A stretch of 64,000 nucleotides of DNA from Patescibacteria group bacterium (GTDB lineage Bacteria > Patescibacteriota > Patescibacteriia > UBA9570 > JAHJKD01): the NCBI GenBank assembly GCA_018822435.1, contig JAHJKD010000003.1, positions 1,208 through 65,207 on the forward strand, in the 5' to 3' direction. The notes below the pieces were generated by a model. The model searched no databases, was not told where the DNA came from, and saw nothing but the letters and a program-made list of their open reading frames with translations. Shown piece by piece: positions 6,635 through 22,739 of this stretch (the stretch's first letter is position 1; each line of letters opens with the position of its first letter). The position numbers were made by a program, and so were the translations under genes.

Positions 6635-6691
6635 AATTTTTAGAGTTTTTTATTAAAAAATTTATTTATTACCTATTAATTAAAATATTTC

Positions 6692-6718
6692 ATATAACGT
6701 TCGTGTGTATGCGATGTT
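6692..6718. repeat. attC-like half-site F (end box plus left arm only)
   Basis: ATATAAC-GTTC-GTGTGTATGCG-ATGTT. Abuts the fic stop codon. Its arm can pair (one G-T wobble) with the arm CGCATACACGC of half-site E at 7638..7648. Confidence 0.5.
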
Positions 6719-7357
6719 TTATTTCTTTTTATTTTTTGAAAGATCTTGAGCCGTTTCTTCCAATGCTGATTTAATTATTGATTGTAACTCTTTAAGATCA
6801 CCCTGGTCAGCGTTTTGTAAAGCTTGAATATATTTTTTCCTTCCGGATTTAGTTTCCACTTTTAATTCCATTGGCGGTAAATTCAGATTCAAGAGAATAA
6901 TATTAATTAACAACCGTCCCATACGGCCATTGTAATCCTGAAAAGGATGAATCCATAAAAATCTATGATGCGCCCAGGTAAGCAGTTCAATTAATTCATC
7001 AAGAAATTTTCCATCATCTATTTTGGGAAGATTTTCCATCCTGACTTTAATATCTTCACACAGATCAATCATTAATTGGGGCACTAAAAAAAATTTTGGC
7101 GGAGTGTGATCAGAAATGTTTACCTCAATTTTGCGGAATTTACCGCCAAATTCAGGAAATATCCAACTAAAACCGACTTGATGTACTTTTTTAAGAAAAG
7201 AGGGAGTAATGGGTATTTTGCCTGATTTATATTTTTCTAAAATAAAATCCCAGGCTTTTTTAATGCCTTCAATTTCAAGGGGTATTAATTTAGAGCGGGG
7301 AATAACGCCAAAAGCAGTTTGCTTGTAGCTCGTTTCGTCTTTTTTCTTCCCGGTCAT
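6719..7357 (-). CDS. fic: Fic/Doc family protein (class I Fic toxin, AMPylation-type)
   Basis: Fic active-site motif HPFQDYNGRMGR (HxFx[DE]xNGRxxR, with Tyr in place of the first Gly). About 210 aa. A small upstream ORF carries an inhibitory motif. Confidence 0.75.
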   Translation of the reverse strand: MTGKKKDETSYKQTAFGVIPRSKLIPLEIEGIKKAWDFILEKYKSGKIPITPSFLKKVHQVGFSWIFPEFGGKFRKIEVNISDHTPPKFFLVPQLMIDLCEDIKVRMENLPKIDDGKFLDELIELLTWAHHRFLWIHPFQDYNGRMGRLLINIILLNLNLPPMELKVETKSGRKKYIQALQNADQGDLKELQSIIKSALEETAQDLSKNKKK

Positions 7358-7359
7358 AA

Positions 7360-7575
7360 TTATTTGGATTTGCTAATGACTTTCTGGACCATCTTTCTCG
7401 TGGTAGTGGGGTTTTCTGTTTTAGTGGTTCGGTAAATCATTTTTTCTTCAAATGCACGAAAATTATCTTGCCGTTCCTGGGAGGAAGATTTCCTATATTT
7501 TTTAAGTAATTTAATGATATTTTGCTTGCTCATATATTTAAAGTATAGCAAAAATACTGAAAAAGTCAATTTCAA
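7360..7575 (-). CDS. FicA/VbhA-like antitoxin candidate (true start probably the internal Met at 7533)
   Basis: Small ORF immediately upstream of fic on the same strand. Contains T-T-K-T-E-N, which fits the Fic inhibitory helix motif (S/T)xxxE(G/N) that class I antitoxins supply in trans. Confidence 0.45.
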   Translation of the reverse strand: MKLTFSVFLLYFKYMSKQNIIKLLKKYRKSSSQERQDNFRAFEEKMIYRTTKTENPTTTRKMVQKVISKSK

Positions 7576-7596
7576 AAATTAAAATAAAAAGAAATA

Positions 7597-7658
7597 AAAT
7601 ATGGGTGAAGTGAGGAGGAGGTACGACGACGAACGGAACCGCATACACGCTGTTAAAC
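7597..7658. repeat. attC-like half-site E (conserved core, right arm and end box)
   Basis: AATATGGGTGAAG...GAACCGCATACACGC-T-GTTAAAC. Its terminal box GTTAAAC is the exact reverse complement of box GTTTAAC at 8241..8247, across the def cassette. Confidence 0.5.
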
Positions 7659-7673
7659 GAAGTCAAGAAAAAT

Positions 7674-8219
7674 CTATGTTATATAATTTATTATTTTATG
7701 AATTACATTGAGCTTCTTTTGATCATACAATTCATCTATTGAAATTAAGTTCTTACAATCCTGAATTCTATCAATATATAAAATAGCATCAAGGTGATCA
7801 ATCTCATGTTGAACTAATCCTGCGAGTTTCCCTGAAAAATTGTACATACATTTTTTGCCTTGATTATTATACGCTTTGATAGTGATTTTTTTAAATCTTT
7901 TAACAAAGCTGCGCAAATAGAAAAAACTAAGGCATCCTTCACGGTTATTGATTAATGCTTTAGACTTTTGAATGATTTGCGGATTGATAAAAATATTAAA
8001 CTTTTCTTGATGATATATAATTATTATACGAACAGGATACCCTAATTGTGGCGCACAGAGCCCATTCCCATGGGAAGATGATATTCTTTTTATTGCCTTC
8101 ATTAATCTGATAATTTTACGAGATATCATCTGGACATCTTTTGATTGAATAGACTTAAGAGGTATCCTTTTAGATTTTTTCCGTAGGATAGGATTACCTA
8201 ATTGAAGAATTTTTTTCAT
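7674..8219 (-). CDS. def: Peptide deformylase, second divergent copy carried as a cassette
   Basis: All three PDF motifs are present: GNGLCAPQLG (motif 1, GxGxAAPQ with A changed to C), EGCLS (motif 2), QHEIDHLD (motif 3, HExxH). A canonical def-fmt pair sits at 59.5-60.9 kb. Confidence 0.8.
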   Translation of the reverse strand: MKKILQLGNPILRKKSKRIPLKSIQSKDVQMISRKIIRLMKAIKRISSSHGNGLCAPQLGYPVRIIIIYHQEKFNIFINPQIIQKSKALINNREGCLSFFYLRSFVKRFKKITIKAYNNQGKKCMYNFSGKLAGLVQHEIDHLDAILYIDRIQDCKNLISIDELYDQKKLNVIHKIINYIT

Positions 8220-8240
8220 AGAAAGATTTTTCTCGATTTT

Positions 8241-8334
8241 GTTTAACGTTCCTGGCTATGCGATGTTGCGACCGAAGGGAGCAATATGGGTGAGCTCTCT
8301 CGAAAGAGAGCGAACCGCATAGCCAGTGTTATGT
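8241..8334. repeat. attC-like structured repeat D
   Basis: GTTTAAC-GTTC-CTGGCTATGCG-ATGTT ... AATATGGGTGAG-CTCTCTCGAAAGAGAG-CGAACC-GCATAGCCAG-T-GTTATGT. The 11-bp arms CTGGCTATGCG and CGCATAGCCAG are perfect complements. End boxes fit RYYYAAC and GTTRRRY. Confidence 0.6.
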
Positions 8335-8382
8335 GTTGTAATTAAATTCAGCGAGCGAAGCGAGCTATATTATTGGGGTAAT

Positions 8383-9201
8383 TTATTCTTCGAAAATTTT
8401 TTCAAAGAATTTAACACGAGATTGTTTTGGATTGGGTAATAACATAATTTCTCTTAGATTTTGTATTTTACCATCTCTGATGAGTTCGGATAATATATCT
8501 AATACGGTAGAATTCTGGCCAAATATAACTCCGCCCGGCTTACATACTCTAACCATTTCTTCCATGAGGGCATAGTTATAATCTGATTCCGGTGGAGTAC
8601 CCTGCTTGGGACGAATGATAGTGTCGTCCATTCCATTGATCACCAAATTAGCTGAATCAGACGGTGCCGTGGCAAGAGTTAATAGCACATCGTCATTGAT
8701 GTAGTAACCATTATCTAAATTCGGCATTCTGATGGATTCTGGATTTGCTGGCGGGAGTGTGTGTTTGGCCTTAGCATTTTTTGAATCAATACCGATATAT
8801 TGACTTGCTCCAAATTCTTTGACTATGTTGCCAATAGAAAAATTCGCATCTTGTAAGACTCTTTCACCACAACCTAAGTCAATTAAGATTTGTCCATTTA
8901 GCTTTTGCTGTAGATATTCTTTAATTTTTTGTCGGACTTCTGGCGACGATTCCCCATAGGGACGACTCTCTTCGTCACCCAATCCTGCCCAGTAGTCAGC
9001 GAACTCGGTTTGATAACCTCCAAATTCTGTGTGCTCAATTATCTTGGTATATATAATGAGTCTGAGCTTTTCATCAAAATTTTCATCTTTATTCCAGTCC
9101 TCAGCTTTGCTAAGAGGCGGAATTAGATTTTGGATACGGAAAAAATTTCCGATATCAAATTGACTTTCTTGTTCTCTTCTTGGTCCTCTTTCAATGCTCA
9201 T
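8383..9201 (-). CDS. Class I SAM-dependent methyltransferase (orphan, substrate unknown)
   Basis: Motif I ILIDLGCGE (hh[DE]hGxGxG) and post-I CKPGGVIFG. No adjacent restriction partner. Confidence 0.6.
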   Translation of the reverse strand: MSIERGPRREQESQFDIGNFFRIQNLIPPLSKAEDWNKDENFDEKLRLIIYTKIIEHTEFGGYQTEFADYWAGLGDEESRPYGESSPEVRQKIKEYLQQKLNGQILIDLGCGERVLQDANFSIGNIVKEFGASQYIGIDSKNAKAKHTLPPANPESIRMPNLDNGYYINDDVLLTLATAPSDSANLVINGMDDTIIRPKQGTPPESDYNYALMEEMVRVCKPGGVIFGQNSTVLDILSELIRDGKIQNLREIMLLPNPKQSRVKFFEKIFEE

Positions 9202-9269
9202 ATTTCAAATAATAAATTGCCCCAATAATATACTTTTCTGCGACAGCAGAAAAGGAATTTAATTATTAC

Positions 9270-9396
9270 ACATAACGTTCCTGCGTATGCGATGTTTGCC
9301 AGTGGTATAATTGCACGAAGTGCTTACCACTGGCAAATATGGGTGGAGGCTTGCGGAGGTACGGAGCAAGCCGTAACCGCATACGCAGTGTTAGCT
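9270..9396. repeat. attC-like structured repeat A
   Basis: ACATAAC-GTTC-CTGCGTATGCG-ATGTT-[hairpin GCCAGTGGTA..TACCACTGGC]-AATATGGGTGGAGG-[hairpin GCTTGC..GCAAGC]-CGTAAC-CGCATACGCAG-T-GTTAGCT. Arms are perfectly complementary. The left box is the reverse complement of D's right box. The right box is the reverse complement of B's left box. Confidence 0.65.
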
Positions 9397-9460
9397 GATG
9401 TATTCCTTTTCTTTTCCGACGATAGTCGGTTGTTTTAAAAATTTTCAAATTTCTTTTTCC

Positions 9461-9592
9461 GTTTTGGGTGGTGGGCAGAGGGGAATTAAAGGGGTGAATG
9501 CCCGCCACCCAAAACACCTATTTCTGGTTTGAGGGAGGGGCAAGAGGGGAACAAAAGGGGTGAATTGCCCCGACCGAAAACTCTCTATTCTA
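9461..9592. repeat. Two tandem ~60-bp G-rich hairpin repeat units
   Basis: Unit 1 is GGGTGGTGGGC-AGAGGGGAATTAAAGGGGTGAAT-GCCCGCCACCC-AAAACACCTATTTCT. Unit 2 is GAGGGAGGGGC-AAGAGGGGAACAAAAGGGGTGAATT-GCCCC... The conserved core AGAGGGGAAnnAAAGGGGTGAAT is enclosed by a stem in each unit. Confidence 0.5.
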
Positions 9593-10334
9593 CTTGTCCA
9601 ATCTCTTTTCTGTATAAACAGTAGTCACAATCTTTGTCTGCCTTTGGTATTTTGTCATTTTCCAAGCACTTCTTGATATCTTTTAATGTTTTCTCTACCC
9701 AATCGTCACTTCCGATGTATTCAATAAGGTGAATATCAAATTCTAGTTTTGCATCAAAGGCTTTTTCATCTGGTCGTCCTGTGCAGTATACAAAATAACC
9801 TGTATTTGACATTTTGAGACCGTTTTGGCGTAAGAGCCACTGATATACTTCCATTTGCCTCTTATAGCCGTCCTGCCAGTCTTTATCCAGCTCTGTGACA
9901 GCTTCTGATTTTGCAGTAGCCTTGTAGTCTACAACAATGTATTCCTTTGTTTTTGGATCAAGCCACAAATCATCAATTGCTCCGCTGACGATAAAACCTG
10001 TTGGCTTGTGTGTGCACTCAACGCCTTTAAAGTTTTCTCTCCAAATATCTAGCGATTCGTGGGCTATAGGAATAGCATTAATGCCGTATTGTTTTTGTAT
10101 GGCGTGTTGTTCGCCGTTTGCTCGGTGTGCGTCAAATTCTGTTTTTAGGAGGTTGTCTACCGCGCTATTGAGTGAAAATGGATATCCGGGCGGTCGTTTC
10201 AATCCAAGTTTGTTATCCAAATAAAAACATTTTGGACATTGCTGGAATAAATCTATTTTTGAGCGTGAAAGACGCCAGCGTTTTCCGCCGTAGTTCCAGT
10301 CTGCTTTTCGTGGGATTGAGTAGTAGTCGGACAT
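9585..10334 (-). CDS. PD-(D/E)XK nuclease family protein with four Cys (Cas4/RecB-nuclease-like fold)
   Basis: Motif GAIDDLWLD...EYIVVDYKAT (D ... [D/E]xK). Cys pairs CPKC near the N-terminus and CDYC near the C-terminus suggest a metal or Fe-S site. Confidence 0.5.
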   Translation of the reverse strand: MSDYYSIPRKADWNYGGKRWRLSRSKIDLFQQCPKCFYLDNKLGLKRPPGYPFSLNSAVDNLLKTEFDAHRANGEQHAIQKQYGINAIPIAHESLDIWRENFKGVECTHKPTGFIVSGAIDDLWLDPKTKEYIVVDYKATAKSEAVTELDKDWQDGYKRQMEVYQWLLRQNGLKMSNTGYFVYCTGRPDEKAFDAKLEFDIHLIEYIGSDDWVEKTLKDIKKCLENDKIPKADKDCDYCLYRKEIGQVE

Positions 10335-10364
10335 GAAATTTAATTATTAATTAATATTTATTCA

Positions 10365-11576
10365 TCAAATCAGTTTCTTGGCCTTGCGATACATTTTTTT
10401 ATATGAATTTTCATTCACTTTCCTCAAAAACAATTTAAGGTCATTTTTTGCAATGATTTTATCTCCAAAGTAATACGATAATATCCCACTTCCATAAAGC
10501 AAGGCTGGTTCTTTATTTTTTTGGTATTCATTATTCAAAAATTCTACTACCTCAAGTGGATTAAATCCCAGTCTTTCAACTGGAATTGAAACTAACTTCT
10601 CATAACATTTAAAAGCACTTTTATAATTTTTCTCTAATATCTTAAAAAAGGCTAAATCAACAATTGTAAGCGTAGAGCTGGGGTATTTTTGTTGAAGTTC
10701 AGTTACGACTTTTTGAGCTTCTGCAATTTTTCCTTGTTTATACAAAAATGTAGCTAAATTTGTTAGTGCAAAATGATTATTCACATCGAGTTTCAAAATT
10801 TTATTACAAAATTCAATGCCTTTATTAAAATCTTTTTTATTTAAACCAAATTCAACAACTAAAATTGTATAATCATCAATAAGGTGGATAGCTGTGCTTT
10901 GTATTAAATCATCATTCCTTTTAGCTAGACTGTTATACAAACGTTCTAATAGAGCGATACTCTTACCAATTTTTCCATAAATCTTTAGTGAAAGCGCTAT
11001 TGTATATATTGATAAATCGAAGATATTGTTTGAAACGATTTGAATATCCTCAAATGAGTTATGTTCGATAATGTTCCAGTAATTTTTTCGTGCCATTCTC
11101 GACCTTAAATCTGCCAAAATCATTTTTCCTATTCTCTTTTCCTTATCATCTGGATGACCAAACGTAAAACTTAAATTTAATTTATTTATGTTGTTTCCAT
11201 CTTTTTTTAGGTTATCAACTGTGAAATCTCCCCATATAATCAAATCAATGTCTTTTTTATTTCTAAATTTTTCTGCTTCTTCCTGATTTTTAAATTTTTT
11301 AATATCTGAAAAATCTTGAACAACTACATATTTATCTAAATCTTGTTCTTTTAGGACTTGATTTATGTTTTTCTTTATTTGTTTGAAATAACTTCCAGAG
11401 TTCAAACCTTCATCAAATTCTATAGAAAGAGCGATGTTAAAATTAGCTGGAAACCATTGGAGTTTTCTTGCTCTGAGCCAATTATATAATTGCTTACGAT
11501 AAGTCCAACAGGCAGTCCCCAAGCCCCCTATTATTAGTAATATCAGCCCACTTATTATAGATTCAGTAATTTCCAT
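10365..11576 (-). CDS. Membrane-anchored protein with a C-terminal TPR-like repeat domain (unknown function)
   Basis: N-terminal TM helix (IISGLILLIIGGLGTA). Central domain without known motifs. C-terminal helical repeats of ~34 aa (ALTNLATFLYKQGKIAEAQKVV, AFFKILEKNYKSAFKCYEKLV). Confidence 0.45.
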   Translation of the reverse strand: MEITESIISGLILLIIGGLGTACWTYRKQLYNWLRARKLQWFPANFNIALSIEFDEGLNSGSYFKQIKKNINQVLKEQDLDKYVVVQDFSDIKKFKNQEEAEKFRNKKDIDLIIWGDFTVDNLKKDGNNINKLNLSFTFGHPDDKEKRIGKMILADLRSRMARKNYWNIIEHNSFEDIQIVSNNIFDLSIYTIALSLKIYGKIGKSIALLERLYNSLAKRNDDLIQSTAIHLIDDYTILVVEFGLNKKDFNKGIEFCNKILKLDVNNHFALTNLATFLYKQGKIAEAQKVVTELQQKYPSSTLTIVDLAFFKILEKNYKSAFKCYEKLVSIPVERLGFNPLEVVEFLNNEYQKNKEPALLYGSGILSYYFGDKIIAKNDLKLFLRKVNENSYKKMYRKAKKLI

Positions 11577-11631
11577 AATTTATTTTCATTACATTTTTCG
11601 AATATATTGAATTGTTAAAACCAAAAATATA

Positions 11632-12879
11632 TCATTTTACCAATTCACCACGAAAAGCTTTCCGGAACAGTGATTGTTGAATTTTATCAGTACGACTTTT
11701 AGCTTCTTTATATATATTTCTGGCTTCATTGACTTTACTTTTTATCATAGTTAGACGGTCAACAATCTTTTCTTGCTCCTCAATCGGCGGTAATGCTATT
11801 TGATATGTTTTAATATAATCAGTAGGAACACGAGCTTGACCCGCCGTCCCCGTCATATGTTGTTGCGCAATATGCCTAAAATAATCACTTCTTAAAATTG
11901 AATAAATGAATTTTGCATTTAGTCTGTCTGAGGGTCTAATGACATGAAATTCAGTAGTCCCAAACCCAATTCCATTAACCAAGTTATTAGCAATCGCTGA
12001 TTTACCATTTTCCATACAAGGTGTGATTTTTGCAAACAAGACATCGCCATTCTTGAAATAAGTGTAACCTTTTCGTACTTTTCCAATTTTTCTTATTTCA
12101 GGTGTTTCAATTTTCCCTGTATGCTCGTTTACTGCAGCCATTGGCACAAAACTAACATCTGTATCATCAGAAATATCTTTGACTTCGCTTTTTTTGGGAT
12201 TTATTTCAGCAATATCTTGTAATTCGACCATTTCCCAGCCTTCAGGTAGTACACTTTCATCATCTGGAATAAGCTTATGGAGTGCTGAAGACATTACGTT
12301 GGCTAAACGTATTTCAGCTTCAAAAAGTAATGACGTTGATTTTGTTAAAATACTTTTTGACTCGTTAAGTTTCATTAAAATCTCTTTTTGATTTGGAATT
12401 GGCGGAAGTGGAATTCGAAGATCTTTAATTATCGTTTGGCTTATATTTGATTGCGCCCCACCAAAACCCTTATCAATTAGGTTATCTTTTTCATTTATAA
12501 GATAAATTTTTAAAAAATCCTTTAAGATTTTACTTTCATCTGGAAAGAATGCACAAACGGCTTGGTTTGTTGTAGCTTCTATGCCAAGTTCAGCTGTTTG
12601 ACCAATGTTTGCTCCGTACATAGCCATTAAAAAAGTTCCTTTGGGTAGAATCTTTACGTTACTTGATTTTAAAGCATCTTTTGTGATTTTTTCTTCTGTT
12701 TCAAAAATTATATTTTCTTTTAATTCACCTGATTTTACCCAAGAAATTTTACCATTTTTATAAAATTCTTTATTGTTTCTACTTGGAGTTCCACCACTGG
12801 TTGTCTTACAAACAGTTTTTAGTTCTACCATTTTCCAGCCAGCAGGAAGTTCTATTTCATTATTTTTCATAATATACAT
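11632..12879 (-). CDS. hsdS: Type I restriction-modification specificity subunit HsdS
   Basis: Two target-recognition halves, each ending in the conserved motif LPPIxxQxxI (LPPIPNQKEIL and LPPIEEQEKIV), plus coiled-coil spacers. Confidence 0.8.
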   Translation of the reverse strand: MYIMKNNEIELPAGWKMVELKTVCKTTSGGTPSRNNKEFYKNGKISWVKSGELKENIIFETEEKITKDALKSSNVKILPKGTFLMAMYGANIGQTAELGIEATTNQAVCAFFPDESKILKDFLKIYLINEKDNLIDKGFGGAQSNISQTIIKDLRIPLPPIPNQKEILMKLNESKSILTKSTSLLFEAEIRLANVMSSALHKLIPDDESVLPEGWEMVELQDIAEINPKKSEVKDISDDTDVSFVPMAAVNEHTGKIETPEIRKIGKVRKGYTYFKNGDVLFAKITPCMENGKSAIANNLVNGIGFGTTEFHVIRPSDRLNAKFIYSILRSDYFRHIAQQHMTGTAGQARVPTDYIKTYQIALPPIEEQEKIVDRLTMIKSKVNEARNIYKEAKSRTDKIQQSLFRKAFRGELVK

Positions 12880-12885
12880 AGTTAA

Positions 12886-14244: not shown

Positions 14245-14257
14245 AGTATTTTAGTTA

Positions 14258-16939
14258 TTACATTGGTTGTAAAATATGTTCATTTATACGCTCTAGGGTT
14301 TCATTCAATTTACCTTCAAAATCCCTATTTGCTTTTGAAAAGCCACCCTTTCTACTAAAAGGCAATGAACGAAAATCGCTAGACTCTACAATGATATTTG
14401 TTTCAAGGTGGATTTTTATATCATCAAGCCATTGTTGCTGTGGCTCAGTCTCGCCCTCAAGTAACATTATCTTAAATGCTTTTTCTATACGTTGTCGTGG
14501 TGTATATAATTTTGTATTCCACATGGCGTGTGAAACAAATGCATATAAGTCAGCTGGGGTTTTAGTATGAGTTGCAATTTCATTTGCGCGTCTTAAATTA
14601 TCTTCTGTGAACCGTTCAGGTGTTTTTGCTAATTCATTTTTAAGCTCCTTGAAATGTTTCATTGAAAATTGTCTTGGTGAATTTAAAAGTATTTTAAGTG
14701 CCTCAATTGTCTTAGCATTTTGCTTAATATATTGCTTAAATGTTTCTAAGTAGTCTTTTGGTTTTAATTCTCTTCCGTCTGTAGTTCGAAAAATATATTC
14801 GGAGGTTGCAATTTCTGCCTTTTTTTCTTTAGAAATTATGAAACCTTGCCTGTAACGAGGGTAATTTTGTAAAAATTCAAGAAAATTAGGGTCTGACATT
14901 TGATTTAGAGCTTCTTCTTCTTGCTGAGCAAGCCTATCTTGAATACTTAATGAGAATTCTTGCAAGTTACCATCTGGTACTGCAAAGCGATTTTCAAGTT
15001 CTTTCCTCCCTTCTTCTGTTATATTCTTATCTACTCTTTGCAACTTCCTAGAAAGAGATTTCACGTTATCTTCAATATCTTTTCCATCACGAATTTCTTT
15101 AATGATTTCACCATAAGTCTTTCCAGCTTTCGTAATTGGTTGCATTATATCTCCGCCTTGCTCCTTCATGAAATCTATTACGCCAATAGCATCAAATACT
15201 GTGAAATGAGTTTTGTTAATATCTTTACAAAGCCGTGTGCCTCTACCAATCATTTGTTCGTAAAGAATTCGTGAACGAATAGGTCTTGCAATAAGCAAAT
15301 TTTCAATTGCTGGCACATCAACACCAGTAGAAAGCATATCAACGGTGACAACTATCCGTGGTTTTTTTAGATTTCTAAATTTACGAATTAGCTCATTTGG
15401 CTTATCGACGGTATAAGTTATTTTTTGAACAACATCATCACCTTCACCTAATTCTTTTCTAAATAGCTTTACCAATTGATTTGCATGTCGCTCATTAACA
15501 CTAAAAACTAAAGTTTTCTCATCTTTTCCAATATATTTACAGACTTCTTTAACAATTTTTCGGTTTCTATCTTCAACAGTCACTTTTCTCTCTAATCCGC
15601 TTGTATCAATATGCAAATCATCATCAAGAAGCTCATCTTTATGTTTTTTGGTTTTCCATTCCTCTATTGTAACTCCTTCTCCTTTTGAAAAAGATACTTC
15701 TTCTTTCATATCTATATCTGTTCGTATTCGTACTGCATCGAAATCTACTAAATATCCATCATCTACTGCCTTTAAATAGCCGTAAGAATACAGATCCTTT
15801 TCATCATGAACATCAAAATATGCTGCTGTGTGAGCTGCAGGCGTAGCAGTCAGTCCAAATTGATGTACATCAAAGTAATCCAAGACATATTTCCATTTAT
15901 TATAAATCGATCGATGGCACTCATCAGATATAATTAAATCAAAAGAATCAATTGGAAAATTCTTGTTATATTCAATTGGACTATCATCCCCGTCAGCCCA
16001 TTCATCTTCTGTTTTAACATCTACACCACTATCTCTGCCTTTAAGCATAGAATACAGTCTTTGTATGGTAGATACATAAACAAATGTATTTGATTTCTTT
16101 CTCTTTTTTAATTGTGATGGCTGTAATACCTCAGCATTATAATCAATTTTTTCACCATCTTCAGGCGTTGGTATCTTGTCACAATAGACAGAATATAAAG
16201 TATCAAATTTATTACCTTTTTCAGGTTCAAATGTTGAAAGAGCCGTTACTGTTTGATCTGCTAAACTTCTTCTATCAACCAAGAATAAAATTCTTTTAAA
16301 ATATCCAGACTTCATTAAATGATACATTAAGGCTGAAGCTGCAAATGTTTTTCCCGTACCAGTTGCCATTGCAATAAGCCCCATTCGTTTATTGTTCAGC
16401 AATCTGTTAACAACATATTCTGCGGCTTCTTTTTGATAAAATCTTAAAGCACGGTCGCCGTAAACAGTTTTAATCTCTTCGTTTTGAAGATACTTTATTG
16501 CGTTATTTTTATCTTCGGAAAGTCTTTCTGTTAAACTTTCTGGTGTATGAAAACCTTCAACTGCTCGACTAAAACTAGGTGATTCTCTTAAATTTTGAAA
16601 CCGTATATCTGTACCATTAGAGCTGTATACAAAAGGCACTTTGTAGCTGCCATACTTAGATTCAAAACCTTCTAAATCTTCTGCGTATCGTAAAGACTGG
16701 GTTAATACGCCATCAATTTGAGTTCCTTCCTTTTTTGCTTCAACTACACCTACAGGTTTACCATCAATTGTAAGTAAGTAATCAGCATCACCTGAGCTTG
16801 TAGGATATTCATAAATAGCCTCACAATCACTCCCTTTGATATCCGTTTTTCGCGAGACAACAGACCAGCCTGCTTTTTCAAGCAGTTTATCAATTTTTTC
16901 TGAACGTGTTTTTGATTCTTTAGGCATATTAAATTTCAT
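14258..16939 (-). CDS. hsdR: Type I restriction enzyme HsdR (helicase/nuclease subunit)
   Basis: Walker A MATGTGKTF and DEAH-box DECH (SDECHRS). N-terminal PD-(D/E)XK-type nuclease region. 893 aa. Confidence 0.85.
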   Translation of the reverse strand: MKFNMPKESKTRSEKIDKLLEKAGWSVVSRKTDIKGSDCEAIYEYPTSSGDADYLLTIDGKPVGVVEAKKEGTQIDGVLTQSLRYAEDLEGFESKYGSYKVPFVYSSNGTDIRFQNLRESPSFSRAVEGFHTPESLTERLSEDKNNAIKYLQNEEIKTVYGDRALRFYQKEAAEYVVNRLLNNKRMGLIAMATGTGKTFAASALMYHLMKSGYFKRILFLVDRRSLADQTVTALSTFEPEKGNKFDTLYSVYCDKIPTPEDGEKIDYNAEVLQPSQLKKRKKSNTFVYVSTIQRLYSMLKGRDSGVDVKTEDEWADGDDSPIEYNKNFPIDSFDLIISDECHRSIYNKWKYVLDYFDVHQFGLTATPAAHTAAYFDVHDEKDLYSYGYLKAVDDGYLVDFDAVRIRTDIDMKEEVSFSKGEGVTIEEWKTKKHKDELLDDDLHIDTSGLERKVTVEDRNRKIVKEVCKYIGKDEKTLVFSVNERHANQLVKLFRKELGEGDDVVQKITYTVDKPNELIRKFRNLKKPRIVVTVDMLSTGVDVPAIENLLIARPIRSRILYEQMIGRGTRLCKDINKTHFTVFDAIGVIDFMKEQGGDIMQPITKAGKTYGEIIKEIRDGKDIEDNVKSLSRKLQRVDKNITEEGRKELENRFAVPDGNLQEFSLSIQDRLAQQEEEALNQMSDPNFLEFLQNYPRYRQGFIISKEKKAEIATSEYIFRTTDGRELKPKDYLETFKQYIKQNAKTIEALKILLNSPRQFSMKHFKELKNELAKTPERFTEDNLRRANEIATHTKTPADLYAFVSHAMWNTKLYTPRQRIEKAFKIMLLEGETEPQQQWLDDIKIHLETNIIVESSDFRSLPFSRKGGFSKANRDFEGKLNETLERINEHILQPM

Positions 16940-16957
16940 TACATTGTTCTGATTGTT

Positions 16958-17173
16958 CTAACCCTGATTTTCAGGTGAACTTTTTTTCAAGAATGTTATT
17001 ACGTCTTTCTTGTGATAGCGTCTTGGCTGCGTATCACTTGGACGAAAGGCTTTAAGTAGTCCTTTATCGTCCCAACGTCTTAATGTCATAAGAGAAACTT
17101 GTAGTATATCTGCAACTTCCCGAAGGGATAGTATTTCCGGCATATCCTTTAATTGGTCTACTAGGTTTTTCAT
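16958..17173 (-). CDS. Small HTH DNA-binding protein (MerR/excisionase-type helix-turn-helix)
   Basis: 71 aa. LSLREVADILQVSLMTLRRWDDKGLL is a typical excisionase/MerR-family HTH. Located between the GmrSD-like gene and hsdR. Confidence 0.5.
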   Translation of the reverse strand: MKNLVDQLKDMPEILSLREVADILQVSLMTLRRWDDKGLLKAFRPSDTQPRRYHKKDVITFLKKSSPENQG

Positions 17174-17183
17174 AACAATAAAA

Positions 17184-19250
17184 TTAAGAAGAATGCTTAT
17201 TAAGTGATTGCTGTATTAAGAAAATGGCATAATCAATCTCCTCAGGCTCAGATAAGCTTACTTCTACATCTCCATTTCCCCAGCGTCCTAAATCCGTAAC
17301 ATCTTTTGCCATTCCTTTTGGGTCATCAAGTTCCTCAAATTTCATATTTAGAGAAAGTCTTAATCTGGTTTTTTGAGGGACAACATCTACAAAGTTTGTT
17401 GAAGTTTTGAAAGCTATGTAGAGCTTCATACATTCTTCTCTAATCTCTGGATTTAAAAGCATGATTCGCTCTTTTAATAGCTCGTAGAGAGTGAACATGT
17501 CGCCTTGTAGGTATTCATAATCTTCAATGTTGTAATCAGCTTCTTTTTCTGGTTGTAAGTCTTTTTTGTACTTCTCCAATATCTCATCAGATAAAACTGG
17601 AGCTTTCCAGATTTGCAGGGCTTCTTTGCTTAGAGTTTCGGCTCGTTGTTTAATCGTTTCTTCATTCCAAGTATCAAGGTCTATTAAATCTTTATTTAAA
17701 CGCACAGAGCTTTCTTTAAATCCTTTCTGCATATCTCTTTTTTCTGTGAACGATTTATTACTCATATCAGAGTTGTACCCCGTAAGAGTAAGATTTCCGA
17801 TAGTGTGCAAATACTCACTTTGGATTCTCTGGAAGTCCTCTCCAAGTGCTTCCTTCCATTGAGGGGTTAAGGTTTGAGGCATGATATGCTCAACGCTCAA
17901 ATCATCAAGATTTACTCGCTCTTTATTGTTGTGGTGTTCAATTTTCTCGAAGAGATAACCGCTATTTCTGAAATTGTAAACATCTTTCTTGGCTAGCTCC
18001 TCCTTAAATTCACTATCCTTAGGAAGTCGGTGATAGCTCTCTCGTAGTATGAAATTAGCCATGAGGCTTTCAATGTAATTCTCTGGCTCGATTTCTTTGT
18101 AGAGGTTCGCAAAGGTCTTATTAAGGGAATTGGTAGGAATACCACAAATAGCACGTCTAAAGACGTAGCATTCAACCAGTTTGAGAACTTCAATGAAATC
18201 TTCCTTTGTGATTATGTTGTTTTCGTAATCATCATAAACACTCATCAGGAATGGGTAAGCTACCTCAACCTTTAGAGTTCTGATGTTGTTAATTATCTCG
18301 TTTATTTGATTGTCTTCTTCTTTGTTAAATTCAAGTTTGGCGTAGTACTTTGAAAACTTGTGGACGTCTGCCACTACCTCTTCAATTTCTCTTCCGAAAA
18401 TATACTGCTTGTATGTTGTGTAAACTGAATCTAGGGTTGGGATTGAGCCTGTTTTGATAGTAAGGAAGCCACGCATGAAGTAGTCAAACTTTTCTTCATT
18501 TTGACCTTCGATAAAAAGGCTCTCCATTGGTAGCCAATACTTGGTGTAAATTTCTTTCTGATGGTCTGGCTCAAGCCCCATGAGAACATAATTCCTAATA
18601 AGGTCAGATTGAGACAAATCCAGTCCGGTAGAATTAAGACTTTCAAAAATAAGCTGAGGGTTGTCCTCTCTATCTAATGCAATATCAACAATGATAAGTT
18701 TTCGTATTCCTTTGAATAAATCATCAAGGTTAATGTTGCCTTTTTCTATTTGAGTAACAAAAAATAGGTAATTTTGGTAAATACGTTCGATTTCTTCATC
18801 TTTTGATATTTCTTCACCATCAACCAATTTTCTAAATACTTCTTTGTCATGTCGTGTAAGGCTTAGTTTAATTCGTTTATCATCTTTACTGTACTCATTC
18901 ACAAGGAAAGAGTTCATGATTTGACGTTTTGTAACCTCGTATTTCTCCTCCGATTTCTTCAAGGCATTCACCATTGCCAAGAAAAGCAATGACAGGGTTG
19001 TCAGTCTCTGCTGTCCATCAATTACAAGAGCCTGATTTGTACCTGCGATGTTATACATGCCAGCGGCTACATAAACGACCGAACCTATAAAGTGAGCAGG
19101 AACTGTATCATCAGTCGAAACTCGCAAAATATCATTCCAAAGTTGCTTACATTGGATTAAATTCCAGCTATAGGTACGCTGATAAATGGGAATAATGAAC
19201 TGCTGTTCTTTATTGATGAACGATATAAAATTGGTTTCTAATGCCTTCAT
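17184..19250 (-). CDS. GmrSD-like type IV (modification-dependent) restriction endonuclease, DUF262 plus DUF1524/HNH
   Basis: N-terminal DUF262 motifs YQRTYSW and IDGQQRLTTL (ParB/Srx-like NTPase). C-terminal His-Me finger LSVEHIMPQ (DUF1524). 688 aa. Confidence 0.75.
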   Translation of the reverse strand: MKALETNFISFINKEQQFIIPIYQRTYSWNLIQCKQLWNDILRVSTDDTVPAHFIGSVVYVAAGMYNIAGTNQALVIDGQQRLTTLSLLFLAMVNALKKSEEKYEVTKRQIMNSFLVNEYSKDDKRIKLSLTRHDKEVFRKLVDGEEISKDEEIERIYQNYLFFVTQIEKGNINLDDLFKGIRKLIIVDIALDREDNPQLIFESLNSTGLDLSQSDLIRNYVLMGLEPDHQKEIYTKYWLPMESLFIEGQNEEKFDYFMRGFLTIKTGSIPTLDSVYTTYKQYIFGREIEEVVADVHKFSKYYAKLEFNKEEDNQINEIINNIRTLKVEVAYPFLMSVYDDYENNIITKEDFIEVLKLVECYVFRRAICGIPTNSLNKTFANLYKEIEPENYIESLMANFILRESYHRLPKDSEFKEELAKKDVYNFRNSGYLFEKIEHHNNKERVNLDDLSVEHIMPQTLTPQWKEALGEDFQRIQSEYLHTIGNLTLTGYNSDMSNKSFTEKRDMQKGFKESSVRLNKDLIDLDTWNEETIKQRAETLSKEALQIWKAPVLSDEILEKYKKDLQPEKEADYNIEDYEYLQGDMFTLYELLKERIMLLNPEIREECMKLYIAFKTSTNFVDVVPQKTRLRLSLNMKFEELDDPKGMAKDVTDLGRWGNGDVEVSLSEPEEIDYAIFLIQQSLNKHSS

Positions 19251-19369
19251 AATTGAAATTTAATTAATTTTCTCAGGTTATACAAAGTATTACAAAGTTA
19301 GTATAACAATTCTAGTGTTTTTCACAAGAGAATGAAGGGAAGAGAAGAGCTGTATATTATAAAGAGTTG

Positions 19370-19500
19370 TTCCGCCGATAGGCGGAACTCCATATATTCC
19401 CCTCATTAAAAAAGCGTTTCCGTAGCGTAGCGGAGGAAACACCATATTTCCCCTTATAAATAAATCGTTTTCGGAGCAAAGCGGAGAAAACACCTTATAT
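19370..19500. repeat. Three tandem ~45-bp hairpin repeat units
   Basis: Units are GTTCCGCC-GATA-GGCGGAAC-TCCATATATTCCCCTCATT, GTTTCC-GTAGCGTAGC-GGAGGAAAC-ACCATATTTCCCCTTAT and GTTTTC-GGAGCAAAGCGGAG-AAAAC-ACCTTATATCCACTC. Hairpin stems differ between units but the tail nCCATATnTCCCCT is conserved. Confidence 0.5.
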
Positions 19501-19582
19501 CCACTCTAAAAATAAAGAAAAAGAAATTTGAAAATTTTTTAAAACAATTGGGCGATAGCCCAGAAAAGAAAAGGAATATTTC

Positions 19583-19697
19583 AGCTAACGTTTCGGCATA
19601 TACGATGTTGCACGGGTGTATAATAGCCGACAGGCTACACCCGTGCAATATGGGCGGAGCGACCATCGGGAGCGTAGCCGTATATGCCGTGTTATAT
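19583..19697. repeat. attC-like structured repeat B
   Basis: AGCTAAC-GTTT-CGGCATATACG-ATGTT-[hairpin GCACGGGTGTA..TACACCCGTGC]-AATATGGGCGGAGC-...-CGTATATGCCG-T-GTTATAT. Arms are perfect complements and covary relative to A and D. The left box is the reverse complement of A's right box. The right box is the reverse complement of C's left box. Confidence 0.65.
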
Positions 19698-19721
19698 GAT
19701 GTAATTTATCAAAATTTTTTA

Positions 19722-20870
19722 CTATTCTATTTTTAATATTTTGCAATCCACGAGATATGGCGACTTGAAATCTGTCATTTCGCCTGCTTTTTTGCCTGGA
19801 ACAGGAAATAATCTTGCTGATAATGGCTTATCTAACTTAATTGCTAAAGTCGCCATATCGAGAAGTGTCGCTTCAATCTTTTCTGCTGGCGTGTCGCCTG
19901 GAATTGGAACTGTGTCTAAACCAACACCGCAAACTGCTGAATATAAAAGCAGGTTAGTAATGCCGTAGGTAGCTTCATTTGCTCTCGTTGCAAGTCCAAG
20001 GTCTTCGCATACTGGGAGCATAAGACCAGAATAGCCACATATCTTAACTGACAAACCTTTGAGTACACGAGTGACCAAAGCAGAAATTGTAAGTGTTCCT
20101 TGACTTCCAAATTTGCCAAAGCCGAGTTTTTCAAAAGCAAAAGCAATACTTTCATGCTCCTCAAGTCCTGGATTTAGTGAAGCATCAATACCATTATAGC
20201 CAATGCCAAAGTCTTTTGAAATCTGTTGAGCTAAATCGGCGACTTTCTTAGTTTCTTCTTCAAATATTGCTTTTAGGTTTTGCTCTGCTTCTATGAGATT
20301 GCTTGATTTTGAAAATGCCTTCACGGCTAAGTCTCCGCACTCCAAGCCAATACCGAAAGCGGTTTCTCCCTCGTGAAAACCGGTAGGAAAGAACGGAATA
20401 CCTGGCTTACAATTTGCGGAGGCGCAGAATCTAAAATTGCCGTAACCGTTTTCGGTTTCCTCTGCAATTCGTTTGATAACTTGAGCTGCTATTTTGGCAT
20501 TTTCAAAATCTATTCCACTTTCCTTGTCGCCGATTTTGGCGGAGCATGAAATTTGAGAGGTAACTTTATTAAATTCAGGAATGAGTTTAATTTTATCTGG
20601 CGTTTTTGCGTAGCCCATATTGAAAAAACTTACGTCGAGGCTTTGGCAAATTTGTTCTATTTTTTGAATCGCACTTACAATTTCTGCGTCTGAAAGACTA
20701 CCAAGATATTCTTCCCATGAATTAGTGGCTATTCTGGTCGTCTGCACTTCATAACCTGCTTTTTCAAACACTTCCTTAGCTTTGCGATTGAATTCAGCAG
20801 TTTGTCTTATTTGATCTTCAATATCAGGTGATTGAAGCGACACGCCAGTTGTTATTGTTCTTATTTTCAT
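19722..20870 (-). CDS. DUF711/UPF0210-family protein
   Basis: N-terminus MKIRTITTGVSL resembles the conserved DIRTITMGISL start of UPF0210 proteins. 382 aa, shorter than typical family members. Assignment is from memory of the family signature. Confidence 0.45.
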   Translation of the reverse strand: MKIRTITTGVSLQSPDIEDQIRQTAEFNRKAKEVFEKAGYEVQTTRIATNSWEEYLGSLSDAEIVSAIQKIEQICQSLDVSFFNMGYAKTPDKIKLIPEFNKVTSQISCSAKIGDKESGIDFENAKIAAQVIKRIAEETENGYGNFRFCASANCKPGIPFFPTGFHEGETAFGIGLECGDLAVKAFSKSSNLIEAEQNLKAIFEEETKKVADLAQQISKDFGIGYNGIDASLNPGLEEHESIAFAFEKLGFGKFGSQGTLTISALVTRVLKGLSVKICGYSGLMLPVCEDLGLATRANEATYGITNLLLYSAVCGVGLDTVPIPGDTPAEKIEATLLDMATLAIKLDKPLSARLFPVPGKKAGEMTDFKSPYLVDCKILKIE

Positions 20871-20912
20871 GGTGCGAAATATTAAAAATTAAAAATTTTG
20901 ATAAATTATTTC

Positions 20913-21001
20913 ATATAACGTTTCGGCATAGCCGAAGTTTGACGGGTGTAAAATACGCCGAAGGTGTACACCCGTCAAATTTGGGTGAGCGAGCGTTAAA
21001 A
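20913..21001. repeat. attC-like structured repeat C (variant)
   Basis: ATATAAC-GTTTCGGCATAGCCGAAGTT-[hairpin TGACGGGTGTA..TACACCCGTCA]-AATTTGGGTGAGCGAGC-GTTAAAA. The left arm self-pairs here (TTCGGC-ATA-GCCGAA). Confidence 0.5.
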
Positions 21002-21021
21002 ATAAAATTGTTTTTATTCGT

Positions 21022-21462
21022 TTAGAATAATAACTTGTATGTTACTCCTTCTTTCCATTGTGGATTTTCCCATTCTTTGAAATCAAAATTTTCACATAGA
21101 TTTCGCATAGGAGAATTTTTAAAAGCGGTTTCTGTAACAACTCCTGTAGCTTTTTTGTTTTTTGCGTGTTCAATACATCTACCCATCAGTTTTTTTCCTA
21201 TACCAAGCTTTTGAAAATATGGATCAACGAGTATTTCACGGATGAAAAAGAAATTGTCTTCCCACCAACCTCTGTCTATAGAACAAAAAGCCACAAATTC
21301 AGCTCCTTTCTTTGCGATAAGATAAAGGCTATCTTTTAGCTGAAAGTGTTTTTTTAGTGAATCTATTGTGGCTTTGTCGTAGGTATAATTGAAAGATTTT
21401 TTATTACGTAAAAAATCAATTTCTTTTTCATTTTTCATCTCTGTAATTTTGATTTCATCCAT
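21022..21462 (-). CDS. GNAT-family N-acetyltransferase
   Basis: Acetyl-CoA-binding motif A QKLGIGKKLMGRCIEHAK (Q/RxxGxG/A). About 145 aa, the typical size for a single GNAT domain. Confidence 0.75.
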   Translation of the reverse strand: MDEIKITEMKNEKEIDFLRNKKSFNYTYDKATIDSLKKHFQLKDSLYLIAKKGAEFVAFCSIDRGWWEDNFFFIREILVDPYFQKLGIGKKLMGRCIEHAKNKKATGVVTETAFKNSPMRNLCENFDFKEWENPQWKEGVTYKLLF

Positions 21463-21483
21463 AGAATTAAAACAATTTTATTT

Positions 21484-21513
21484 AGCTCGCGAACCGGCTA
21501 TGCCGTGTTAGCT
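21484..21513. repeat. Truncated attC-like site G (arm plus end box only)
   Basis: AGCTCGCGAACCGGCTATGCCGT-GTTAGCT. Resembles only the right arms of A, D and E. Box GTTAGCT is the reverse complement of AGCTAAC at 21783..21789. Confidence 0.45.
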
Positions 21514-21521
21514 GAAGTTAA

Positions 21522-21752
21522 TTATTTTTCCCATTTTAAGTATGCCCTAATATTTAAGGCAATTAGGATTATGCAAACAATTACTCCAGGCCAGATTTGA
21601 GCCATGTAGTTGACTATGATCCACGCTATATTCGCAGCAATATAGATTATGAACGCATATCTTTTTTTATTGCCAATTAGGTAAACAAAAAGGAGTGAGC
21701 CTGTCATAGCTATCCAGTCTATACCATAGTAATTGCCAATTATATGTTCCAT
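21522..21752 (-). CDS. Small hypothetical membrane protein (2 TM), first cassette next to the attI-like region
   Basis: 76 aa with two hydrophobic helices. No assignable family. Confidence 0.35.
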   Translation of the reverse strand: MEHIIGNYYGIDWIAMTGSLLFVYLIGNKKRYAFIIYIAANIAWIIVNYMAQIWPGVIVCIILIALNIRAYLKWEK

Positions 21753-21917
21753 ATAGAAAAATAATTAATTTCAGCTAACTGGTTATTATACGAAGTGTTT
21801 TCATATAATATGCATGATTTAGGGTGTTATGCGGCTATTGCGGAGAAGGGAAGATTGCTGTAATATTTTAAATAACATCCTAAAAACATCTTCTAATATA
21901 CTTAAAATTCATCAATT
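21753..21917. promoter_or_regulatory. attI-like region and divergent promoter zone between the recombinase gene and the first cassette
   Basis: Contains box AGCTAAC (21783..21789) complementary to the first cassette's GTTAGCT, a TCATATAA element resembling the starts of repeats C and F, and a GTTATGC box (21836..21842). AT-rich with several -10-like hexamers. Promoter positions were not resolved. Confidence 0.4.
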
Positions 21918-22739
21918 ATGCAAGATTACCTCAAAAAGGCAAAGGAAGAGCTTTTGGTTCGGAATTATAGCCAAAAGACTATTAAAAGTTATACTTCTTG
22001 TTTGCGGAACTATTTTGAATATTTAGATTCTGTTGGTTTTGATTTGGGAGTGGTGGACAGGGAAGTGATAAAAAAATTCTTATTAAAGAAAAAGGGGAAA
22101 GGGTATTCACCACAAACTTTGAATCTTTTTCTCAATGCGATTAAATTTTTTTATAGAGAAATTATTAAATCACAGGAGGAAATTGATTTGAAGTTTTCCA
22201 AACGGTCGCAGAAATTGCCGGTGGTGCTATCGCGCAATGAAATCCAGCTCATCCTAGATGAGGTCGCTAATTCCAAACATAAGCTGCTGATCGGGTTGAC
22301 TTATGGGGCAGGCTTAAGGGTGAGTGAAGTCATAAATTTGAAGGTCAGGGACATTGACTTGGAGAGAGGAGTAATTGCTGTCCGAGCCGGGAAAGGGGAT
22401 AAGGATAGGATCACGGTTTTGCCTGAAAAATTATCGTCTGAAATAATGGCTAGGATAAGGGGAAGGAGTGGGCCGGAGTTTGTTTTTGTCAGTGAACGGG
22501 GCGGACGGTTGACAGCAAGAACAGCACAGAAAGTATTTGAAAATGCTTTGCGGAAGGCAGGGATCCAAAAAGATGCCACTTTTCATTCATTGCGCCATAG
22601 TTTTGCGACTCATTTACTAGAGAGCGGGACGGACATCAGATATGTGCAGACATTGTTGGGACATCGCAATATTCGGACCACGCAAATTTATACCCAGGTG
22701 AGCACGGCTAATATCAGGGCCATTGCCAGCCCGCTATAA
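21918..22739 (+). CDS. Site-specific tyrosine recombinase (XerC/XerD/IntI superfamily), the presumptive cassette integrase
   Basis: C-terminal catalytic region with R (LRVSE), K (GKGDKDR), HxxR (HSLRHSFATHLL), R and Y (HRNIRTTQIYTQV). N-terminal core-binding domain. Only 273 aa, and the segment between the KxxR box and HxLRH is ~58 aa, too short for the IntI-specific insertion. Confidence 0.85.
   Translation: MQDYLKKAKEELLVRNYSQKTIKSYTSCLRNYFEYLDSVGFDLGVVDREVIKKFLLKKKGKGYSPQTLNLFLNAIKFFYREIIKSQEEIDLKFSKRSQKLPVVLSRNEIQLILDEVANSKHKLLIGLTYGAGLRVSEVINLKVRDIDLERGVIAVRAGKGDKDRITVLPEKLSSEIMARIRGRSGPEFVFVSERGGRLTARTAQKVFENALRKAGIQKDATFHSLRHSFATHLLESGTDIRYVQTLLGHRNIRTTQIYTQVSTANIRAIASPL

Follow-up and report, generated by a model that had tools for sequence, protein, structure and literature searches.

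The DNA considered here, a stretch of 64,000 nucleotides from a genome of the Patescibacteria, or candidate phyla radiation, CPR (the window), carries a long run of accessory genes, punctuated by copies of a structured repeat that I will call E and adjoined on the right by a gene for a tyrosine recombinase. Every sizeable open reading frame (ORF) between 6045 and 21752 lies on the − strand, while the recombinase gene (21918-22739) is on the + strand and so divergent from them, an arrangement that the preliminary description of this DNA had rightly noted. Leftward from the recombinase come a pnuC-like fragment, a GNAT acetyltransferase, a DUF711 protein, GmrSD, a helix-turn-helix (HTH) protein, HsdR, HsdM and HsdS, then a tetratricopeptide repeat (TPR) protein, a PD-(D/E)XK nuclease, a 272-aa putative methyltransferase and peptide deformylase, and lastly a 71-aa ORF, Fic and two small membrane proteins. 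The array is flanked by housekeeping genes: NadA/B/C and CarAB (NAD and pyrimidine synthesis), GatB, DnaE, ThrS and PriA. The cargo reported earlier (Fic, GNAT, a methyltransferase, here putative, small membrane proteins and defence genes, here type I restriction-modification, GmrSD and PD-(D/E)XK) and the housekeeping flanks are thus both borne out.

I read the locus, with a probability of roughly 0.68, as a chromosomal integron-like platform for gene capture, of a non-canonical type. It is integron-like, not a canonical integron. The site type that E represents is apparently undescribed, and it recurs in many ultra-small bacteria and in some archaea.

Structured elements between the cassettes

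A repeat search and direct reading give five copies of E in the array (E1 to E5, from left to right; Table 1), three of them intact, at 94-127 nt, and two split by nested genes. On the + strand they follow the formula nnnTAAC-G-TTY-(P1 5' strand, 10 nt)-G-AWGTT-(P2 hairpin)-AAWWT-GGGTG-(P3 hairpin)-AACC-(P1 3' strand)-T-GTTAnnn. The sequence folds into an R-box-like duplex of TAACG with TGTTA, a 3-nt bulge, the 10-bp stem P1 and a three-way junction whose joints, AWGTT and AAWWTGGG, are conserved. Described in integron terms, E has a one-sided bulge of 3 nt as its spacer, a helix (perfect over its 10 bp in the window copies) as its second box, and the three-way junction as its variable part. 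Each gene block nested in E1 or E5 has its own inverted repeat on both sides, prolonging the stem into which it is set (in E1, TTATTTCTTTTTATTTT.../...AAAATAAAAAGAAATAA).

The + strand folds alike in all five copies, with RNA or DNA parameters, and is always more stable than the − strand. The outer helix TAACG/TGTTA forms only on the + strand, because the fold relies on G.T pairs, which become A.C on the opposite strand. Folds with DNA parameters have z-scores of −5.4 to −6.9 relative to shuffled sequences. The folding strand is antisense to the cargo genes and is therefore what would be called the bottom strand of an integron. A bottom-strand fold had been anticipated, with two or three extrahelical bases; the fold and its R box are there, the spacer is the 3-nt bulge, and the second box holds no extrahelical bases.

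The fold is conserved well beyond the window. In an alignment of 115 copies from 64 sources, fitted to a covariance model, 95.2% of cells pair and compensatory changes occur in 27 of 34 pairs, with slid controls at 31-47%. Two G.U pairs are near-invariant (109 and 112 of the 115 copies) and tie the fold to one strand.

No copy of E was found in the window outside the array. The sequence TAACGTT occurs five times on the + strand, each time as the left end of an E; a covariance model made from the five copies finds nothing else in the window above 17 bits, and neither of two models of E (R1 and R2) has a further notable match there. This is not what is expected of a dispersed repeat of the repetitive extragenic palindrome (REP) or miniature inverted-repeat transposable element (MITE) kind. 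Other claims about the repeat need trimming. It had been said to follow each gene block, to measure 30-130 bp and to have ends fitting RYYYAAC/GTTRRRY. The family and its TAAC/GTTA ends are real and the intact copies fall within that length, but there are only five copies, a seven-gene block of 10 kb lies between two of them, two are split, and of the ends only the TAAC/GTTA part fits the consensus, which GTTATGT, GTTAGCT and GTTATAT each miss at one position.

The blocks between E copies in the window begin with GTTAnnn and end with the complementary nnnTAAC (GTTAAAC/GTTTAAC, GTTATGT/ACATAAC, GTTAGCT/AGCTAAC and GTTATAT/ATATAAC), and the complementarity continues into inverted flanks of 25-70 nt. 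Of 59 intervals examined in other arrays, some of which probably span undetected sites, 28 show complementary bases at the three variable positions, as against 8.6% in mismatched controls. The consensus of the cassette flanks is ...ATTtcnnaTAAC and GTTAtnnGatgt. The rule GTTAnnn/nnnTAAC is the one known from classical integrons, where the core site that opens a cassette corresponds to the inverse core of that cassette's attC; here the correspondence covers some 13 bp or more. In many cassettes a purine-rich element (..GAGCGAAGCG.., ..CCCCGAnnGnnGAAAG..) stands directly after GTTAnnnG and interrupts the inverted flank. It is a second recurrent module, with examples at 8347-8366 of the window and at two other loci (L205, 8975-9045; L206, 227-300).

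Several other identities for the array were considered and rejected. A group I or II intron or a ribozyme would go with an Rfam match and with intron-type ORFs, neither of which is present; at gathering scores of Rfam 15, the window and four array loci give only tRNAs, and E4 alone gives no meaningful match below threshold. The spacing and content do not fit a CRISPR-like array. As for hairpin ends of the IS200/IS605 type, neither an HUH transposase nor TnpB is encoded nearby.

The recombinase and the adjoining site

The recombinase consists of a Phage_integrase domain (PF00589, 152.7 bits) and a SAM-like N-terminal domain (PF13495, PF02899), in agreement with the preliminary description. NCBIfam model TIGR02249 (integrase_gron) matches it in two stretches with 216.7 bits, below the cut-off of 265, and NF040815 (recomb_XerA_Arch) with 229 bits, narrowly above the cut-off of 220. 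Six E-linked recombinases (this one and five others) score 193-229 with the former model and 212-241, straddling the cut-off, with the latter. Relatives of 308-313 aa found by the same search score 354-463 with TIGR02249 and are true IntI, whereas the E-linked type is 268-273 aa long.

Alignment to VchIntIA (2A3V) comes in two pieces, residues 4-176 of the query to 5-177 and 200-273 to 244-317, separated by 23 aa in the query and 66 aa in VchIntIA, so that about 43 residues of the IntI-specific region are missing; this is the additional domain around patch III on which IntegronFinder's intI_Cterm criterion is based. The alignment to XerA (4A8E) is contiguous. In a crude, midpoint-rooted neighbor-joining (NJ) tree, without support values and with sampling biased by the collection route, the short E-linked proteins group together as the sister clade of true IntI, while XerA and other proteins of the Xer type branch elsewhere. 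Database names for the family include XerD, site-specific integrase and "site-specific tyrosine recombinase/integron integrase".

The 100-150 nt before the start codon of the recombinase are conserved in 19 of 21 loci. They follow the pattern ...ATTTCnnnTAAC, then immediately TsGTTwTTATrCGAAGTG, about 25 nt, TTGTATGTTATaCGAA, TATAAT and ATG. The last TAAC of the array abuts this attI-like site (nnnTAAC followed directly by TsGTTwTTATrCGAAG), again in 19 of 21 loci. As read from the alignment, the motif TTATrCGAA appears twice, the second time within the apparent promoter of the recombinase gene. Two loci, L205 and L206, are 82% identical through the recombinase and the attI-like site and become unrelated leftward from the point between AAC and TCG, their first cassettes being different.

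E elsewhere and the movement of cargo

A scan of a genome collection with a sequence pattern gave 120 loci. The pattern was loose, and about half of the loci are chance matches, from which the covariance model then sorted the real copies. Strong matches (30-110 bits) lie in about half of the 120 loci, always on one strand within a locus, and the arrays often have 4-8 copies, 0.4-4 kb apart. The metagenome-assembled genomes (MAGs) concerned are labelled as Peregrini-, Falkow-, Uhr-, Magasanik-, Kerfeld-, Gracili- or Saccharibacteria, as Woese-, Pace-, Nano- or Aenigmarchaeota, and as methanogens, KSB1, Omnitrophota, Bacillota or Dehalococcoidia, though with short contigs such labels may reflect errors of binning. 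Some contigs with a single copy of E do, however, have genes for archaeal RFC, MCM or archaeal topoisomerase I.

A metagenome scan made with the recombinase protein gave 80 loci, oriented on that protein, in which the position of E relative to the recombinase can be judged. All 34 matches to model R1 and 46 of 47 matches to R2 lie upstream of the recombinase gene and on its strand; the sole exception (L174) is beside a canonical IntI. The same layout holds in five genome loci (L021, L044, L115, L122 and L013) and in 4 of 4 further homologues picked solely for their long contigs. Among short-recombinase loci with enough upstream sequence, E is upstream on the recombinase strand in 24 of 27, and in none is it downstream or on the opposite strand. 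Of the three loci without a match, two (L126 and L147) do have the end of a cassette right against the attI-like site.

L174 is the only place where both types of site were seen together. It encodes a 314-aa IntI (3422-4363), with a weak canonical attC match upstream (2734-2792, 20 bits) and an E-like element just downstream (4428-4518, 41 bits) that has CAACGTT rather than TAACGTT.

In 54 of 58 intervals, whose median length is 933 bp, the cargo is encoded on the strand opposite to that of E. The 93 ORFs represent 54 Pfam families, including NUDIX, deaminases, methyltransferases and an AbiEii-type toxin; the window's own array has type I restriction-modification and GmrSD genes.

One cassette of the window has a close counterpart elsewhere. 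Over 1237 bp the DUF711 block (19691-20919) shares 96% identity with another locus's first cassette (L131, 8654-9886), and the proteins are 98.7% identical, while the recombinases of the two loci are only 58% identical and dnaE and thrS about 68% (nucleotides). On the right the homology ends exactly at TAAC, beyond which lies E5 in the window and the attI-like site in L131; on the left it ends at GTTA or a few bases before. DUF711 is the only window cassette shared with the cargo of the fetched loci. Ends of the type seen on the large cassette ("AGCT-type") enclose other sets of several genes in L021, L152 and L029; they are also seen on cassettes of L058 and beside attI in L126 and L147. Related genomes carry different cassettes, not the fixed gene order that would have spoken against an array of this kind.

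Table 1. Elements, cassettes and genes of the array, from the recombinase leftward (positions in the window).
Feature	Position	Strand	Basis
Short IntI-like tyrosine recombinase, 273 aa, without IntI additional domain	21918..22739	+	Pfam, NCBIfam, structure alignment, NJ tree
AttI-like site and recombinase promoter region; AGCTAAC joined to TGGTTATTATACGAAGTGTTTTCATATAAT, then second TTATGCG repeat	21774..21917	+	Conservation, homology breakpoints
Cassette 1, nearest attI: 76-aa pnuC-like C-terminal fragment (ORF 21522-21752), ends GTTAGCT...AGCTAAC	21507..21780	-	PF04973; flanks read from sequence
E5, P3 hairpin split by nested GNAT gene (21022-21462, -); left part 20913-20994, right part 21485-21513	20913..21513	+	
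DUF711 cassette (ORF 19722-20870), ends GTTATAT...ATATAAC, 36-nt inverted flanks	19691..20919	-	PF05167, 355.7 bits; inverted repeat I3 86% complementary
E4, intact structured site, 115 nt	19583..19697	+	Model R1, 120.5 bits; DNA fold -34.3 kcal/mol, z = -6.9
Large AGCT-type cassette, seven genes, ends GTTAGCTGATGTATTCC...GGAATATTTCAGCTAAC	9390..19589	-	Pfam; inverted repeats I11, I13, I17 76-96% complementary
GmrSD (large cassette)	17184..19250	-	
HTH protein (large cassette)	16958..17173	-	
HsdR (large cassette)	14258..16939	-	
HsdM (large cassette)	12886..14244	-	
HsdS (large cassette)	11632..12879	-	
TPR protein (large cassette)	10365..11576	-	
PD-(D/E)XK nuclease (large cassette)	9585..10334	-	
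E3, intact structured site, 127 nt	9270..9396	+	Model R1, 111.2 bits; core 100% identical to L114 (Saccharibacteria MAG)
Cassette with 272-aa ORF (8383-9201), ends GTTATGT...ACATAAC, 49-nt inverted flanks	8328..9276	-	Inverted repeat I1
E2, intact structured site, 94 nt	8241..8334	+	Model R1, 83.5 bits; DNA fold z = -5.4
Peptide deformylase cassette (ORF 7674-8219), ends GTTAAAC...GTTTAAC	7652..8247	-	PF01327, 136.7 bits; flanks complementary 19/26
E1, last array site; P2 hairpin replaced by nested Fic (6719-7357) and 71-aa ORF (7360-7575)	6692..7658	+	PF02661, 58 bits
Distal flank: two small membrane-protein ORFs (6404-6634, 6045-6404), cassette-type right end ATTTCATATAAC	6045..6698	-	

A few of the entries call for comment. 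The ORF of cassette 1 matches PF04973 with 23.8 bits, under the cut-off, over profile positions 109-175 of 175. It covers no more than the C-terminal third of a transporter of nicotinamide mononucleotide of the PnuC type and is probably a fragment of a gene. The 272-aa putative methyltransferase has no Pfam or NCBIfam match. The peptide deformylase gene is complete; three other loci (L129, L127 and L158) have a def homologue outside the array, as the next gene downstream of the recombinase. For the distal segment (6045-6698) a left end to match its cassette-type right end was sought and not found. A promoter and terminator scan of the array gave no enrichment over shuffled sequence and is uninformative as to a cassette promoter.

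Close to each end of the 10-kb cassette stand tandem small hairpins of the form GTTnnn...nnnAAC, with conserved linkers. The left group has two units of 55 nt (9461-9515 and 9527-9581) and the right group three units (19363-19491). Those on the right read ..CCATATWTCCCC.. on the + strand, the reverse complement of GGGGAWATATGG, which resembles the E junction AATATGGG in the opposite orientation. Such hairpins may represent sites that are empty or have degenerated.

Just left of the array, at 5579-5992, is a + strand ORF of 137 aa with a start like that of a signal peptide, in a stretch apparently richer in G+C than its surroundings; Rfam has no match in 5050-6150. Far to the right, between convergent genes, lies a near-perfect palindrome of 62 nt (40502-40563; 31-nt arms, 87% complementary, no spacer), scoring 17 bits with the first model of E. 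It is probably a bidirectional terminator.

Assemblies of the same species are broken inside or beside the array. One, a MAG, breaks beside the methyltransferase cassette, where a contig ends, and inside DUF711, where another starts, the 10-kb defence block being missing from both contigs. In a second assembly a contig starts 143 bp upstream of the recombinase. Breaks at or just upstream of the recombinase, or within the array, are seen in L001 and L203 (GCA_018825215.1), L002 (SRR2540949), L130, L132 and L146. The pattern fits heterogeneity of the population or breaks induced by repeats.

Weighing the readings

In several respects the system resembles integrons: a divergent tyrosine recombinase with a cassette array in one orientation, a conserved insertion site beside the recombinase gene, sites between cassettes that fold on the strand complementary to the ORFs, a cassette start complementary to the inverse core at its end, varied accessory cargo (toxin, defence, GNAT) and exchange of cassettes between genomes. 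It also shares with integrons, including those of archaea, a bottom-strand AAC/GTT core, a box of the form TAACG...TGTTA and a G.T pair (Ghaly et al. 2022, PMC9668308). The divergent recombinase with its same-strand array, the core with its G.T pair, the complementary cassette ends and the integron integrase label that NCBI gives to members of the recombinase family are what could be said for a canonical sedentary chromosomal integron, with IntI, attI and cassettes bounded by attC.

I consider that reading very improbable, in view of both enzyme and site. The recombinase lacks the additional domain of IntI, and the six E-linked recombinases scored are all under the TIGR02249 cut-off. E has a 3-nt bulge where attC has an unpaired spacer of 5/5 nt, and in the window copies its second helix is perfect where attC has extrahelical bases; it has a three-way junction with conserved internal motifs, while archaeal attCs are simple hairpins (xxTAAC-AAnTC-L''...L'-TnGGn-CGTTAGGC; PMC9668308, Data S9). 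Identical cores of E turn up in different genomes, the cargo is enclosed by inverted flanks of 20-70 nt, some E hairpins have genes set into them, cassettes may contain several genes and reach 10 kb, and cargo has moved without its site. A proxy covariance model of canonical attC, built from seven published archaeal attCs (PMC9668308, Data S9), detects arrays beside true IntI genes (L199, L201, L169 and L190) at 20-45 bits and gives no match with an E-value of 1 or better in the window or in 12 other loci with E arrays. Conversely, the models of E find nothing beside true IntIs except the one copy in L174. The architecture proposed in the preliminary description thus holds, and has gained support (divergent recombinase, attI-like site, co-oriented array, bottom-strand-folding sites, complementary ends, transfer of a cassette), but assignment to the integron family proper is not supported; the attC model by which that description proposed to judge the repeats fails, in a proxy of its canonical form, on every one of them.

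The mechanism I propose for this integron-like platform is as follows. The short tyrosine recombinase, which the crude tree puts in the sister group to integron integrases, would act on E sites folded as single-stranded DNA, on the strand complementary to the cargo. Each would present an R-box duplex (..ATTTCnnnTAACG paired with TGTTAnnnGATGT..), the 3-nt bulge, the 10-bp second box and the three-way junction. The first box would comprise the TAAC/GTTA duplex and its flanks of about 13 bp, the second box would be P1, and the bulge and junction may stand in for extrahelical bases, which in the case of IntI are read by the additional domain. New cassettes would enter at the attI-like site beside the recombinase gene and stack in one orientation, transcribed away from it. 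Since cargo modules and E cores are apparently exchangeable separately, and genes can sit within the loops of E, the rules would differ from those of canonical integrons.

Several considerations weigh against this. It is from sequence that I infer the catalyst (this recombinase), its substrate (single-stranded DNA, not RNA or a duplex) and the points where the strands might be cut. Neither an excised circle nor an alternative junction was seen. The enzyme lacks a domain that IntI requires on attC (Messier and Roy, as cited in PMC9668308), and it might be, or might also be, a housekeeping Xer, because it narrowly passes the XerA_Arch cut-off and its family is very large in Patescibacteria (>5300 clusters). 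The conserved G.U pairs suit RNA as well as single-stranded DNA. The conservation of TAACGTT, GTT and TGGG in the loci from the genome scan (L003-L122) is partly by construction, because the pattern demanded them in at least one copy per locus. In the same species, looked up by exact protein matches, contigs have only the same arrangement, with no variation in cassettes.

The behavior of the E cores is a further difficulty. Cores of about 100 nt are 100% identical between MAGs of different phyla, with flanks that are unrelated or about 77% alike, as in a Kerfeldbacteria contig of 822 kb (L127, 5557-5656), a Methanosarcinales bin (L051, 4423-4522) and a metagenome contig (L083, 37-136); the core of E3 is likewise identical to that of L114 (430-556). 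Where cores are at least 90% identical, the flank is conserved with them in 7 cases on the GTTA side and in 1 on the other. The E cores beside DUF711 differ between the window and L131, so the cargo moved without the neighboring core, and a core of the E5 type occurs in both with different genes nested in the same loop (in L131, a gene of 252 aa). Movement of DUF711 without its core, identical cores across phyla and nested genes all fall outside the predictions of an attC model with one crossover per site. They may reflect separate exchange of cargo and site cores, or a contribution from homologous exchange where sites are similar.

Two other explanations account for part of this, and both are less well supported than the integron-like reading. 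One is that E is an RNA or a passive repeat (a 3'-end or processing structure, an antisense RNA, or a REP- or MITE-like repeat in an accessory island) and that the recombinase is an unrelated housekeeping Xer. RNAs typically show conserved G.U pairs, loops like GNRA and UUCG and a fold of several stems, as E does; the recombinase, which passes the XerA model, belongs to a family found throughout the Patescibacteria; and the single E copies on archaeal contigs have no recombinase within a slice of 8 kb. I nevertheless think this unlikely. The stable strand is antisense to the cargo in nearly all intervals, there is neither an Rfam family nor an enrichment of promoters, E keeps to the array within the window, 24 loci without exception have it on one side of the recombinase and on one strand, and there is a conserved attI-like site, with homology breaking off exactly at TAAC.

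The other explanation draws on Xer recombination. The recombinase has the size and domain make-up of XerA, XerC and XerD, and in CTX phage (an integrative mobile element exploiting Xer, or IMEX) an enzyme of the Xer type acts on a folded single strand, the phage genome folding into a dif-like site. The present locus, in which no single 28-bp dif site was recognised (none was searched for), has structured sites arrayed with cargo between them and an attI-like site of its own, and the recombinase groups with IntI, not XerA, in the crude tree. A nearer likeness is with the pdif modules of Acinetobacter plasmids, in which duplex XerC/XerD sites, without a conserved fold, bound gene modules. These share with the present array short sites in alternating orientation and interchangeable modules that include toxin-antitoxin and resistance-type cargo. 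By analogy, an Xer-type enzyme might act on short duplex sites ..ATTTCnnnTAAC.. and their inverse ..GTTAnnnGATGT.., with cargo and E cores both as modules and the fold as secondary. The sites do alternate, each E starting with TAAC on the left and closing with GTTA, cargo and cores do seem to be exchanged independently, and the recombinase is Xer-like in length and domains. A duplex site, though, has no need of the compensatory covariation in P1, P2 and P3 or of the strand-specific G.T pairs, which show selection for an intramolecular fold. The elements here are folded, covarying and 94-127 nt long, in a chromosomal array beside a dedicated recombinase, and no two-arm, 28-bp, dif-like core was recognised (without a systematic search for one). 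This explanation too seems to me improbable, about as much as the preceding one.

The integron-like reading admits of a bolder form, to which I give somewhat less than even odds. The system may be a second, ancient lineage of integron type, in which a sister group of IntI that never had the additional domain, or lost it, is paired with a three-way-junction site. It would then be the main platform for cassette exchange in the CPR, present also in DPANN and other archaea, with cassettes and cores traded across phyla and perhaps domains, and it may stand near the ancestral state of integrons.

Searches of the literature outside subscription journals found no description of integrons or cassette systems in CPR/Patescibacteria, nor of an attC with a three-way junction. 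The survey by Ghaly et al. (2022) demanded an IntI domain and canonical attCs (PMC9668308), and an E-type system would therefore escape it. More generally, integrons are defined and sought by the IntI domain and the model of canonical attC, and the E-type system is therefore invisible to such surveys. The recombinase family has thousands of members, annotated only as XerD or as a generic integrase, and E is found in MAGs assigned to many lineages of Patescibacteria and on contigs with archaeal genes. If the function proposed here is true, then E would be a new kind of structure-specific recombination site, and its recombinase a natural comparison for how tyrosine recombinases without the IntI domain recognise folded DNA. 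The origin of integrons would become testable, and ultra-small, host-dependent microbes would have a dedicated route for acquiring accessory genes, such as those for restriction-modification, Fic toxins and the modification of nucleotides.

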